Positions 1 to 6,000 of a stretch of 64,000 nucleotides of DNA are shown here, piece by piece (the first letter of the stretch is position 1; each line of letters starts with the position of its first letter). Origin of the DNA: Escherichia coli (GTDB taxonomy: Bacteria > Pseudomonadota > Gammaproteobacteria > Enterobacterales > Enterobacteriaceae). The position numbers were made by a program. Location of the stretch: the NCBI RefSeq assembly GCF_003018115.1, contig NZ_CP027457.1; one strand, 5' to 3'.

Positions 1-3000
1 CATCCACCGTACCGTTCGGGAAGCGGATTTTGTAGGCCCGGGTCTCACTGCTGTCAAACCAGGCAATCAAATCGCGCTGCCCTTTCTCGCCCGGCTTCCA
101 GGCCAGCGTAAAACTGGTGTCACCGGCAGATTTCTGCCCCTGCCCGGTGGATACCCAGTCAGCATCCTCATCATCCAGATAGTTATCATCGTAGGATTCC
201 GCCGTCATCTCGCCGGGGGTCAGATCCTTCACCTTCGCCAGTCGCTGCCAGTCATCGTCTGACAACGGTTTTGCATAAGCATCACCAGTGCCGGTGTACA
301 CCCACAGTGTGGTACCGGAACCTTTCACCGGCTCAAGAGGATTTGGTGTTGCCATATCGTCCTCACATCTCGTAGGTAATTTTCCACAGGAGATCTGCCG
401 ATCCCCACATCATAAACTCATCATCCCGGCGGTAGTCATACCCCTGAAGATTCATTTTCAGCAGTAATGCACTGAGCCCTGGAACTGCCTCCAGCGCCGG
501 AAGTATTTTTTCTTCCATCCACATATCCAGTGCCGAGTCCGGTTCTTTTGCCCTGAGAAAAACCTCAATATGCAGTGTCGCCTCCCAGGTTCCCTCATCA
601 ACGAACTCGTCAGCAGCAGACGCATCAGTCAGGTAAACAGCAACAGCAGGCAGTTCCTGTTCATCAATAAAAACCGGGCGACCGTCAAACCAGCTCACCC
701 TCTCAGAAATATTTTCTTTCAGGGCAGACAGAACTGCCGCCCGTATTTCACGGTGTTTCATACACCCTCCCAGTCATTTTCTTTTCAGCACCAGGCGTAA
801 CTGATGCGTCATGGCTTTCATCATCTGCGTCGGTAATTTTTCCCGGTACATCCGGTCCCGTTCACGTTCAAAGGTTTCTGCCAGCGGTCCGGCAGTCGGA
901 ATCTTCACCACTTCGATCGGCAGACGGTGGCGTTTCGGCCTCCCTTTGCTGTCAGCGCCGGTGGACGATGATGCCCACGGCATACGCTGCATCACATGCC
1001 AGCGTCCGTTAGCCAGCCGGGTGATAAAGGCGTCCGGGATCCGTCTTTTCCCCACAATCAGCACGCTGCCACCGCCTTTCGTGACCGAACGCTCGCCTTT
1101 CTTTCGTCGCTTTCTGCGGGAAAGCCGCACGCTGGCCGTCCCCAGTTTTATGGCGGGCAGATTACCGGTGTTGATGATGACCTTCGCATAAACCCTGTCT
1201 GCGCTGGCCCGTTGCAGGCGGATACGCTCACGGATGAGACGGCGCGGAACCGCCAGCTCCCTGGCAACCGAAGAGGCCGTTTTCGCGATGATGGACTCCG
1301 CCACACGGTTAAGTGTCGTGGCGGCAGCCCGGGGAACGGCACGGCGGTCAATTGCATCCAGATTTTTCATGGCCTGCGCCAGACCTTTTATTGCCATACT
1401 CATTCCTGTTCGACAAAAATCCGGGGTTTACCGTTGTACGTGTCATAACGGGTCACCGTCAGTGTGCGGCCCTCAAACACAACAACATCATGACGGGCCG
1501 GACGGTACCGGGCTGAAAACACCACCAGTGACAACTGGCTGCCCGAAAGCGCCCCCATCTCCGCGGACTCTTCCTCCGGCATCACGTCATACACGACGCC
1601 GTTAATCTCCGCCTGTTTGCCCATCACCCGAACGGTCGCCCCGTCCATCCGGCAACACATTCGCGTAAACAGGTCAGACATTGATTTTTACCGCCACAGT
1701 GGCGCTGTTTGCAGGAGCATTTTCCCAGGCTACCCCCGCGGCCACCGCACCGTCTGCAGCCAGCTGCACAACCCCGTCCTTCAGATAAACCACCGCGCCG
1801 GACTGAATGTCGTCAGCAGACTGTTTGGGCAGCAGGAACACGCCTTCGGCAAAACCGTCACCGGCCTCACCGGCAGGAATATCGGTAATGGCCACGGCCA
1901 CCATACTGCCGACCACCACCGCAGCACCGCTCAGGATGGTCTGATCTCCGGCATTCACCAGTTCAATGGTGGTACCGTCCTGTACAAAATTTTTCGCCAT
2001 AATGCTGTTTCTCCGGACAGCCCCAGTGGGGCTGTTTTTCAGGCATAAAAAAAGCCCTTTCGGGCAGTGATTGTGATAACGCGGTTATCAGGCCACCGAC
2101 GAACGCACCAGTCCGCGCCAGTCAAGCGGTGCCACACCGGCATCAATACGAATTTTTGTGGCAATGCCGTCAGTGGTGAAACCTTCCTGCTGATCAATGT
2201 ATGGCGTGTCCACGCCATCCAGCCAGGCCACTTCAATGGTGTCAGTGCCCTGTGCCGCCGCCAGATACCAGGTTTTCGGATCTGCCGCATCAAGACGCGC
2301 TTCTGCAATCACCTCAGCAAAGTTCTGGATGGGGTTAATGACACCGGCGTTTGCATCCGCCCCTTTCACACTGGCCGATTTGATGGTCTGGTTCGCCACC
2401 GTCTCCAGTGCCACCGGTACCAGCATAAAGGCCGGACGGATATTCAGGGCGCGATCGCCTTCTTTCTGCAGGCGCATCATCTGACGGGCCGCATCCAGTC
2501 CGGAAACGGAGATCCCCCCGGTGGCAATATTTTTGTGATCGGCATGGAACAGCGCCTTACCGTCGGACAGTTTCGGGTTATCCGTCAGCACCTTGTAGAC
2601 CAGGTCACCAATCGTTGCCTTCGCCGCACGCCCCATCTTCATCGGCACGTCCACCAGCATATTCAGATCATCATTGATAATGGCCTGGCGGGTGATGGAG
2701 AAAATCTCCCCGTAAGTGGCCAGTGCAATGGTCTCCTTGCGATCTGAGGTGGTGATGTATTTATACTCCGCCCCCTCACGAACCTGGCGCAGAGAACCAA
2801 AACCGCCCATCCCCACGCGATACGCTGTTTTGAAGTCTGACAGGCGTCCCTTACGGGTCCACTTCTGGAAGGTTTCTTCTGATTCCTCCCAGCCCTGGAT
2901 CAGCCCCTTGTTCGACACATCCAGCAGGATATTGCCAAAATCAGAGGTGCTGTGCGTCAGCGCCAGCCCGACCATCTGCATGGGGTTATAACTGGCCACC

Positions 3001-6000
3001 CCAATACCGCGCTCCGTCAGTGACATACGAGCCCATTCACGCAGGGTCATCCCGTTATAGGCGTTATCCTTCTCGACATTTTCAAATCCGGCACGGGCCA
3101 GCATCGCCTGGCGGATTCCGTCCCCCACAAAATTGCCGTTTCCGGCATAAATATGAGCCGGTGTATTTTTGTTGGTCGGCGAGGACTCCTTGCCCATTTC
3201 ATTCAGCAGACGTTCACGGGCCATTTCCAGCGAACAGTCAGGATCAGCCACGCACTGTGCCTGAAGCGTCTGATAGCGACCGCCGAACATGGCAAACAGA
3301 TCGTTAATGCCTGACATGCGGGCTTTCTGTTCTGCCATAACGCGGGCGCGAATGGTCGCCTCATCAGACACTGCCGGTACCGGTGATGGTTCTGTTACCG
3401 CCGGTGCAGGGATTGTCACTGTGGTATCACGCGGGGCACTGTTGCGTGGCGGAGTAATCATGTTTCGGATGGATTCCGGCATCTTTTTAAATTCCTCTGT
3501 ACGTTTTGACTGAATACATGCCATTGCCTCAACAGCGGGTGTCACCTGGTCAGCAAATCCGTGTGCCAGACATTCGGCACCGGACATCCAGGTTTCATCC
3601 GCCAGCATGGCGGCAATTTCATCGGTGGTTTTTCCGGTTTTCTGCGCATAGGCTGGCAACAGTACCGATTCGACTTTATCCAGCAAATCGGCATAACTGC
3701 GCATATCCTCAGCATCCCCGCCACTGAATCCCCATGGCTTATGGATCATCATGAAGGCATTTTCCGGCATAATGACCGTATCACCGGCCATCGCAATCAC
3801 AGATGCCATCGAGGCGGCAACGCCATCCACATACACGGTAATGGTCGCCCCCTGATTTTTCAGGGCATTAAAAATGGCGATGCCTTCAAAGACATCGCCA
3901 CCCGGTGAATTGATATGGAGATTAATGTGGGTGATATCACCCAGTGCATTCAGTTCGCTGACAAACTGCTTCGCGGTAACTCCCCAGAAACCAATCTCGT
4001 CATAAATATAAATATCCGCCTCACCCTGACTACCCGCCAGCATCCTGAACCAGGATTTATTCTTCATGCTGGCTGTCGGTGGCCTGCTGACGCTGTTGTT
4101 CAGTTCCGGCACTGTTGCCTCCTTTGTCGTTGACGGGGTCAGTATCAAAGACCAGCCCCAGTCTGCTGTTTTCATCAATTTCAGCCTTGCGGCGACGTTT
4201 GACCTCATCCGGATTGCGCCCACCAGCACGCACCCAGTCAGATTCTGTCGCTGCACCACCCCGGATCTGAATTCTCCAGGCTTCAGCTTCCTTAACCGGG
4301 TCGATCCACGGCATCACCGGACCGGAATACGTCGCGTTATATAGCGTTTTCATCTCCACATCCGCCGGAATTTTCAGCAGACCTGCCGCAACCACCATAT
4401 TCAGCCATGTCCGGTACACCGGGCGGGTTACCGCGCCAATAAAACAGTCCTGCAGGATCAGGTAACCATCCGTGGACTCGACCAGCTCCTGCCGCTGGGC
4501 GCTGTAGGTGCCGTTATAGTTACGCGCCGCACTGGAAAAACTCAGACGACTGCCTGCTGCCACTGCACGCAACTGGCCGTTGCGGAAAGTTTCAAGGTTG
4601 GGATTGGGACGGTCAGATTTGACCATGCCGATATCCTCGCCCTTGCGCAAATCGTCATAAATAATACCCGGGGTGATATGGACTTCCCGCTCGGTCTCTT
4701 TGCTCCCCGGATCTTCATAGTCCTGTCCGTCACCTTTACGGATATACAGTCCCAGCGCCGCAGCAATACGCGCCGCTGTCAGTTCCGCATCCTCATACTC
4801 CTTAAGGGCACTGATCCGCATCAGCACCCCCGATAACATGGATGAGCCTCGCGTCTGGTGCAGACGACGAGTGAACTTCAGGTGGATCATTTTTCCGGCA
4901 GCGATTTCTTTCGTATCACTCTGCCGGCCGCTGACCGGATAATTTTTATAAACCAGATATTTTTTCGGTCTTCCCCACTCATCAAGAAAAACCCCCTGAT
5001 TCAGCCCGGCGGATTCATCAGTGCGCATGGGAACAAAATCCGGCTCCATCGCCTCAAGCCAGAATGGCACTCCCGCCGTCCGTTCCAGACCGTTTCCCGC
5101 ACCACTGACCATCTGCGCAAACACTTCACCATCCCGCAGCCAGGTCCGCAGCAGTAAACGTTCAAGCACAGGACGGGTATACTGCCCTGTCACATCCGGA
5201 CTCACGGACCATTCAGCCCACAAACGGCGGATATCCGCAGCCAGCTCAGCCGCCATTTCCCCGTTTTTTCGTAATGGCTGAGGCTCCACAATAATTCCCC
5301 TGGCACCAATCACCCGCTCTTCCAGCTTGTCAAACACACCAATCACCAGGTCATGATTGATATCCAGAAAACGGGCCTGCTCCCGCAGGGAAACCGCACC
5401 GTATTTACTGAGCTGATCAGCAGAGCGATTTTCCCGCCGGGCTTTATGTGTCCGGGTCGGTTTCACCGCCTCATAGGCCATGATTAACGCCCTTGAACGC
5501 AGTCTGGCTGCTTTCCACCCGGGGGAAAACACGCCTATCACATCATCAATAATTGCCATTAAAACCTCGCCAGTTTAAATCCCGGTTTTCCCCGCCTGCG
5601 GCTCACCATCGCGGCAAGCCTGCGTTCCCACTCCTGACGTCCGGCGCGGATCTGAGAAAGGCTTTCCAGCGTCAGTTGCTGTCCGTTGAAGGTGACAGAC
5701 TTCCCCTCCAGTACGGTCATTTCCGCTTCACGGTACCGCTGTATCATTTCTCTGGCTTCTTCTGTGCTCACAACCAGCCTCCTGATGTTATCCATGGATT
5801 ATCTTCCGCACGCTCCGTCCGCAGTTTTTTCTTCCGGCGACGGCGTTTTTCTGCCCCGGCCATCAGTTCCGGGGATACCGTTTCACCAGAACGCTCCTGC
5901 GGGAAGACGAGCCACGTTTCCCGCTGTGCCCAGTCCGGTGCGGAGGGCCAGCGGATCTTTTCGTAACCATGCAGAACGGCAAGCGCATCCGCATAAACCA

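Follow-up and report, generated by a model that had tools for sequence, protein, structure and literature searches.

We analyzed a 64,000-nucleotide stretch of Escherichia coli contig NZ_CP027457.1 (RefSeq assembly GCF_003018115.1), referred to hereafter as the window, and identified in its first part a minus-strand gene in which a ClpP-like prohead protease and a major capsid protein are encoded in one reading frame. A lambdoid prophage is integrated next to potC; its right-hand portion makes up the first 32.7 kb of the window, and its late genes all lie on the minus strand. In our reading, to which we assign a probability of about 0.9, the fused gene is a "tripartite" head gene of the Gifsy-2 type carried by a long-tailed lambdoid Stx2-converting prophage, comprising a protease, a linker, a scaffold-like segment and a capsid domain, translated from GTG 4112 and serving the head assembly pathway proposed below. 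The architecture of the fused gene is known and has been annotated before, and the gene is a typical representative of its large family; what the present analysis adds is small, namely that the annotated start codon is probably wrong and that the family as a whole shows signs of a nested internal start. Residues are numbered throughout from GTG 4112 (the 674-residue form).

2088..4112, minus strand: fusion gene for a protease, a scaffold-like segment and the major capsid protein, with 674 codons before the TGA stop codon (2090-2088) and a predicted product of 73.2 kDa

The open reading frame (ORF) contains no internal stop codon between its longest possible start (4259) and the stop at 2090-2088. 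Analysis of this single frame with Pfam identified CLP_protease (E = 1.1e-36) and Phage_capsid_4 (PF25209; E = 9.4e-56, 190 bits), both far beyond chance, together with a weaker match to Mu-like_gpT (PF10124; 39 bits). In NCBIfam, the protein matched NF045540, a model named [quoted passage not shown], with 1003.7 bits (curated cut-off, 475 bits) over model positions 2-651 of 652, and NF045542 ("head maturation protease, ClpP-related") with 224 bits, while PHROGs assigned the whole length of the fusion protein to phrog_133 (1153 bits). These results bear out the initial annotation of the window, which had placed a protease domain and a capsid domain in a single ORF and had proposed a domain search as a check: Pfam, NCBIfam and PHROGs all locate both domains in one stop-free frame. 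The coordinates given at that time, 2088-4067, stand for the stop codon and agree with a call by the Prokaryotic Genome Annotation Pipeline (PGAP) at the same positions (WP_122993599.1, named as a fusion) in E. coli O91:H21 strain FWSEC0008, whose chromosome is 99.2% identical to the window across 50 kb; the upper end needs correction, as GTG 4112-4110 is better supported. That annotation had also placed the fusion in some E. coli lambdoid prophages, where PGAP indeed names the same architecture, and had set it apart from the separate C, Nu3 and E genes of phage lambda, a distinction that holds in the window: by ORF analysis, Pfam, PHROGs and existing annotation, no other capsid or scaffold gene is present between the terminase and tail genes.

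To describe the organization of the protein we used an AlphaFold2 model based on an alignment of 50 diverse sequences of the family, with identities to the query of 35-62%. The full-length model has a mean predicted local distance difference test score (pLDDT) of 86.6 and divides the protein into the following segments, all encoded on the minus strand:

Residues 1-18: disordered N terminus in the AlphaFold2 model
3528..4055, minus strand: ClpP-fold (MEROPS S14-like) prohead protease domain, residues ~20-195, matched by CLP_protease and NF045542
Residues 203-219: two short helices in the AlphaFold2 model
3369..3443, minus strand: disordered linker rich in Pro, Ala and Thr, residues 224-248, pLDDT below 50
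2958..3362, minus strand: helical scaffold-like (delta-domain-like) segment, residues ~251-385, from the AlphaFold2 model
2091..2957, minus strand: HK97-fold major capsid domain of the Mu gpT type, residues ~386-674, 31.4 kDa

The two ends of the protein resemble solved structures. A Foldseek search with the full-length model returned ClpP matches only, and the protease domain aligned to Thermus thermophilus ClpP (6hwm) with E = 1.3e-13, a TM score of 0.78 on the target and a root-mean-square deviation of 2.6 Å. At the other end, Phage_capsid_4 spans residues 384-671, and a profile of the C-terminal part matches the solved capsid chains of the Mu gpT type 8rkc and 8rkx from phage JBD30 (E = 1.2e-14), as well as 9jod. 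When the last 355 residues were modeled separately (pLDDT 85.9), the top Foldseek matches were solely HK97-fold capsid and encapsulin shells, with a probability of 1.00. Between the two domains, the linker columns are hypervariable in both length and sequence in the 50-sequence family alignment, and the segment that follows is modeled as helices at residues 251-274, 281-289, 295-307, 328-341, 357-366 and 377-386. Its position, its helicity and published analogies suggest that residues 251-385 may act as a scaffold; in the published analysis of MD8 gp5 from a Pseudomonas phage, a scaffold is assigned to the equivalent position (PMC8508860).

The closest experimentally known counterpart is the protein STM1034.3n of Salmonella phage Gifsy-2, annotated as "Clp protease involved in capsid processing", which is 60% identical to the window protein over 696 aligned columns and colinear with it in all segments. 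Both prophages are lambdoid, have lambda-like tail genes and share the gene order portal - fusion - small decoration gene - head-tail genes, and the aligned starts of the two proteins are alike (MPE...). In length, the window protein falls short of its Gifsy-2 counterpart by 22 residues, most of them from the N terminus and the linker; in addition, the window gene resides in an Stx2-converting E. coli prophage, starts with GTG instead of ATG, and is known here from genes alone. Effantin et al. (2010, Virology 402:355, PMID 20427067) reportedly described, according to later papers that cite them, a single Gifsy-2 gene encoding protease, scaffold and capsid in one polypeptide. The prohead protease and coat genes of Gifsy-2 have been referred to as fused, citing Effantin et al. 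2010 (PMC12315714), and the Gifsy-2 particle has a T=7 shell (PMC8814770), with trimers of a cement protein on the 3-fold axes of the capsid (PMC8538268).

By analogy with Gifsy-2, HK97, lambda and Mu, we infer an assembly pathway for the window phage, including self-cleavage, a cleavage position and a triangulation (T) number. Starting from the lambda-type portal, subunits of the fusion protein would assemble together into a procapsid, probably of T=7, whose interior would hold the protease and scaffold parts. The tethered protease would then be activated by the crowded conditions there and would remove between one half and two thirds of every subunit from the N-terminal side, and the fragments would exit the shell. 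The mature capsid protein would have ~31 kDa if the cut falls near residue 386, and up to ~39 kDa if it falls nearer residue 320; Mu-type capsid proteins begin near the position aligned with residue 386. The shell would expand during DNA packaging, and the DUF2190/Phage_cement_2 protein, whose gene follows the fusion, would finally stabilize it in the form of trimers, in the role that gpD plays in lambda.

Several points weigh against this overall reading. PGAP and several database entries take the shorter start at ATG 4067, and Pfam found no family match for residues 211-392 searched alone, which bears on the proposed scaffold role. The window covers part of a prophage that may still make particles; cleavage, the cleavage site and the particle geometry are proposed by homology with other phages.

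A proposal that would add to the tripartite reading, and not replace it, is that the gene gives two products, namely the full-length polyprotein and a scaffold-capsid protein that lacks the protease and starts at Met211. The shorter product would be comparable to HK97 gp5 with its delta domain. We regard the two-product proposal as a tentative possibility, and one that is rather doubtful on present evidence.

3480..3482, minus strand: ATG of Met211, the sole nested-start candidate in the window gene, which would give a 464-residue, 50.5-kDa protease-less scaffold-capsid product

In the AlphaFold2 model, Met211 is located exactly on a domain boundary, at the end of the protease fold and before the disordered linker, within the conserved motif KRTEEFKKMPES. 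Its ATG is preceded at ~10 nt by AGAGGA, with a Shine-Dalgarno energy of -6.0 kcal/mol. Ranked by Shine-Dalgarno strength among the in-frame start codons of each gene, the Met211-equivalent start comes 1st of 57 in Gifsy-2 and 3rd of 42 in the related gene of Pseudomonas phage vB_Pae_BR200a (BR200a), which favors the proposal; the signal in the window gene itself is weak (7th of 55, with the ~10-nt spacer noted above), and the rank in the family member P0123 (10th of 49) is no better. The clade of the window has no Met in the linker and has the conserved Met211 instead, with GAGGA, GAGGAG or CAGGAG upstream. Moreover, the first Glu codon before Met211 is GAG in all nine DNA variants of a gene that overall prefers GAA (24 to 16). 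It should be considered, against this, that consecutive Glu codons yield GAGGA without any selection for a ribosome-binding site, and that the KRxEEFxxMP motif could be kept for protein reasons.

The wider family offers a further line of evidence. A linker Met is present in 46 of the 50 representatives, mostly in one aligned column, despite the hypervariability of the linker. Glu is strongly enriched at position -4 relative to this Met (25 of 53 contexts) and at position -3, compared with a linker background of 7.8% Glu, and the counterpart of this Met-Glu signature at the DNA level is GAGG located 7-9 nt upstream of the ATG. Among individual linker starts we found AAGGAGGGCGTT-ATG (-12.2 kcal/mol, rank 1) and AAAAAGGAGGCTATC-ATG (-11.6 kcal/mol), while a representative without a linker Met carries AAAGAGGTAACAATT-GTG in the corresponding position, where it ranks first among 44. 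The linker ATG was among the top three Shine-Dalgarno scores in six of the eight unrelated loci fetched first (40-60 in-frame starts each), a rank statistic that is biased, and counts the less for it, because these loci were picked after their amino-acid context had been viewed. Together, the linker starts preceded by GAGG in the wider family hint at a nested product made of scaffold and capsid. In distant members from metagenomes and genomes (loci L087-L095), the linker start (ATG, once GTG) follows GAGG or AAGGAGG, often with the best Shine-Dalgarno score of the gene.

If a conserved in-frame start after the protease domain (Met211 here, a linker ATG or GTG elsewhere) were used, the gene would give two products and the ratio of initiation at the two starts might set the number of proteases per procapsid, an arrangement that we consider possible but unlikely from the sequences at hand. 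The much stronger Shine-Dalgarno sequence of GTG 4112 argues that the full-length protein is the main product. Literature searches on the PGAP product name and on internal translation in such fusions returned nothing relevant (PMC8402733 names Gifsy-2 only within a strain genotype), and we found no description of a nested internal start in these fusions in the searchable literature, to which the primary Gifsy-2 paper did not belong.

Returning to the tripartite reading with translation from GTG 4112, the position of the start codon is the feature on which our analysis departs from existing annotation. Two signals are involved:

4118..4125, minus strand: Shine-Dalgarno sequence AAAGGAGG, 5 nt upstream of GTG 4112-4110, inside the last codons of the portal gene
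4065..4067, minus strand: ATG 4067, codon 16 of 674, taken as the start by PGAP and by the initial annotation

A start at ATG 4067 would yield a protein of 659 residues. It is the start called by PGAP in RefSeq genomes, ATG is a better initiator than GTG, and the resulting overlap with the portal stop, of only 11 nt, would fit translational coupling; a start at GTG 4112 entails an overlap of 56 nt between the fusion gene and the end of the portal gene. The sequence evidence points the other way. The duplex of the GTG 4112 Shine-Dalgarno sequence with the 3' end of 16S rRNA has an energy of -11.6 kcal/mol, the best of 65 in-frame start codons, whereas ATG 4067 has no Shine-Dalgarno sequence (-2.0 kcal/mol). 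Across 15 diverged DNA variants, drawn from 80 related loci, the arrangement AAAGGAGGC-N4-GTG-CCG is identical in 14, with variation at the third codon positions that flank it, and the remaining variant, Gifsy-2, has a weaker motif and an annotated ATG start (MPEV...) that aligns with GTG 4112. The residue encoded at ATG 4067, by comparison, is Met only in the subclade of the window and Pro, Leu, Ala or Val in other close homologues, and in the 50-sequence family alignment the window sequence is alone in having Met in this column. Finally, the 674-residue form is that of the largest cluster in the database, which comprises 3481 sequences.

We therefore place the start at GTG 4112, given its strongest and conserved Shine-Dalgarno sequence, the alignment with the Gifsy-2 start and the form used by the largest cluster. 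This makes GTG 4112 the more likely translation start on sequence grounds and ATG 4067 probably an internal Met codon, the alternative of initiation at ATG 4067 being improbable. One caveat is that the Shine-Dalgarno sequence lies within portal codons (Lys-Gly-Gly), so that the portal protein could explain part of its conservation. The start codon had been left open in the initial annotation, as had internal initiation; the Shine-Dalgarno energy and its conservation now largely settle the start codon in favor of GTG 4112, and the RefSeq/PGAP start is probably 15 codons too late in this lineage. In-frame starts further upstream (4259, 4223, 4208 and 4148) were also considered and rejected, as all four are located deep within the portal gene, their Shine-Dalgarno sequences are weaker, and their translation is not conserved as protein.

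The protease domain appears to be catalytically competent. Our analysis identified a catalytic Ser101 (codon 3812-3810) in GVAASMA and a His124 (codon 3743-3741) in MMIHKP, and the alignment to ClpP chains covers the corresponding GxAASMA and MIHxP motifs. The position of the ClpP catalytic Asp is occupied by Glu173 in the window protein, as judged by eye from the alignment, and this column holds Glu in 40, Asp in 6 and another residue in 4 of the 50 sequences. The lack of strict conservation at the third catalytic position is what could be said for a dead enzyme serving as mere scaffold mass, with maturation carried out by a host protease or proceeding without cleavage. Nevertheless, Ser101, His124 and their motifs are invariant in all 50 diverse fusion proteins, in spite of identities to the query of only 35-62%, and since an invariant Ser and His are not expected of a dead enzyme, we consider this explanation highly implausible and retain an active tethered protease.

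The idea that the single ORF is an artefact of a frameshift, an assembly error or a recent deletion joining a protease and a capsid gene has next to nothing in its favor beyond the existence of separate ClpP-type protease genes in most of the 1629 phage records that match the protein (with ~30% of the query covered in most), and it is contradicted by identical gene DNA (100%) in three complete genomes, by an intact ORF in 1925 E. coli genomes, by the full-length fusion protein in 82 phage records, by more than 100 divergent full-length fusions among cluster representatives, by a curated NCBIfam model that spans the full length, and by a linker and scaffold segment colinear with those of Gifsy-2. 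More specifically, DNA matching the gene was found in 2069 of 5426 complete E. coli genomes, with at least 80% of the gene covered in the 1925 just mentioned and up to six copies per genome. In a library of proteins clustered at 50% identity, with a single sequence standing for each cluster, the best 150 hits include well over 100 full-length fusions of 640-750 residues, some of which share only 36% identity with the window protein. A frameshift or sequencing error, which would have separated two genes, is thus ruled out by a fused ORF that is conserved in genomes, in phages and in divergent cluster representatives, and kept across lineages that are 36-60% identical.

The closest phage records are those of long-tailed Stx2-converting phages, such as Stx2_499 and ASU11 (99% identity). 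Homologous genes that are 76-99% identical in DNA are present in phages mEp460, cdtI, Tritos and VT1-Sakai; these NF045540 homologues are of the same kind, and their annotated start differs by 15 codons. In VT1-Sakai, the Stx1 prophage of O157:H7 strain Sakai (AP000400.1, 3397-4706), the homologue is 98.9% identical in DNA and split by IS629, with the halves annotated as "scaffolding protein" and "hypothetical protein", and the VT1-Sakai prophage is therefore left without an intact capsid gene. Two E. coli database proteins, P0093 (1027 amino acids) and P0111 (939 amino acids), join the fusion to terminase (GpA) domains or to a PF09718 domain, and are probably artefacts of assembly or gene calling.

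Comparison with other systems places the window gene among several known head designs. Relatives of gp5 of Pseudomonas phage MD8 include those of F10 and BR200a, and from end to end the BR200a protein shares 58% identity with that of the window; these genes differ in their Pseudomonas host and in a longer N terminus and linker. HK97 gp5 is alike in being an HK97-fold shell protein with an N-terminal scaffold-like part. In HK97, the phage protease removes the N-terminal delta domain of gp5 inside the procapsid. The HK97 protease gp4, however, is encoded by a separate gene and belongs to a herpesvirus-like family without the ClpP fold, and the HK97 shell is stabilized by covalent chainmail, where the window phage encodes a cement protein instead. 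The lambda and Mu systems share several features with the window prophage: its portal and terminase are of the lambda family, a protease precedes a scaffold-like part in the same frame, the shell would be held by decoration-protein trimers and not by cross-links, and the capsid domain is of the Mu gpT type. In contrast to the window gene, lambda C is of the S49 type and not of the ClpP/S14 type, and the window decoration protein belongs to DUF2190 and is not a gpD homologue by sequence. For MD8 gp5 and its relatives, a protease, a scaffold and a major capsid protein in one gene have been proposed from HHpred and Phyre2 analyses (PMC8508860). Lambda and Mu each encode their capsid protein in a gene of its own, and in both a proven nested start gives rise to the scaffold (Nu3 and Z, respectively; in part after PMC8508860).

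The genes that surround the fusion in the window are those of a lambdoid head module:

7888-8364, minus strand: DUF1441 protein, in the small-terminase position
5768-7891, minus strand: large terminase
5559-5771, minus strand: small W-like gene
4057..5559, minus strand: lambda-family portal gene (Phage_portal_2, E = 1.6e-80; TIGR01539, 444 bits)
1674..2000, minus strand: head decoration (cement) gene, DUF2190/Phage_cement_2, directly downstream of the fusion (PF09956, E = 6.6e-19; phrog_122, "head decoration")
1400-1681, minus strand: Gifsy-2-family head-tail gene
After the head-tail gene, minus strand: Z-like and U-like tail genes

This order is largely kept elsewhere. Among 11 unrelated loci, a Phage_portal_2 gene lies directly upstream of the fusion in seven, the upstream gene is truncated at a contig end in three, and one (L096) has a different upstream gene; a Phage_cement_2 gene is the next gene downstream in nine. 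Between the fusion stop (2088) and the decoration gene start (2000), we observed a GCCC-GAAA-GGGC hairpin followed by TTTTTTT (2040-2062, minus strand) and, just before the decoration gene, a second hairpin (CAGCCCC-ACT-GGGGCTG). The records of mEp460 and Ayreon annotate a "terminator" under the match to the 2040-2062 region. A terminator scan did not flag the hairpin after the fusion stop, which has a stem of only 4 pairs, and RNA folding of positions 1995-2095 was only mildly better than that of shuffled sequences (z = -2.2).

The prophage that carries the fusion gene also carries stx2A (15997-16956, minus strand; 319 amino acids) and stx2B (15716-15985, minus strand) and is thus Shiga-toxin converting. 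A segment of the Stx2 B subunit presumably resembles the Stx2c/2d type. Both toxin genes lie downstream of a Q antiterminator gene (17442-18263, minus strand) and of three tRNA genes (17047-17298, minus strand), namely Arg-tct, Arg-tcg and a tRNA with a CAT anticodon that PGAP calls Ile, and upstream of a gene encoding a 648-amino-acid DUF6645 protein (13258-15204). Rfam placed an STnc100 small RNA (160 bits) just downstream of stx2B, at 15427-15641 on the minus strand, and a DicF antisense RNA (62 bits) upstream of dicB, at 28148-28199 on the plus strand. On this opposite strand, the early/nin region also contains a ParD/ParE type II toxin-antitoxin pair (20105-20667, plus strand), according to the FWSEC0008 annotation. 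The integrase and excisionase genes (31627-32745, plus strand) abut potC, and from 32912 onward the window consists of ordinary E. coli chromosome, including potCD, cobB, nagK, lolCDE, mfd, ldtC, ndh and other genes. On its left side the prophage continues beyond the window, with the tail genes that come after U.

As a discovery, the fused gene carries little weight, since the architecture has been known experimentally since 2010 from Gifsy-2, has its own NCBIfam model and occurs in more than one third of complete E. coli genomes. Its practical relevance lies in annotation: automatic tools often label the fusion merely as "Clp protease" or "head maturation protease", and pipelines that search for capsid genes consequently miss it; one such pipeline recovered no capsid protein for Gifsy-2 (PMC8814770). 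As the fusion is the head gene of long-tailed Stx2-converting prophages, its intactness could serve as a quick marker of their ability to form particles; in VT1-Sakai it is disrupted by IS629. Lastly, the candidate nested start could be tested cheaply and bears on what determines the protease content of each shell; if real, it would carry over to the shell protein itself the use of nested genes seen in lambda C/Nu3, Mu I/Z and herpesvirus UL26/UL26.5.

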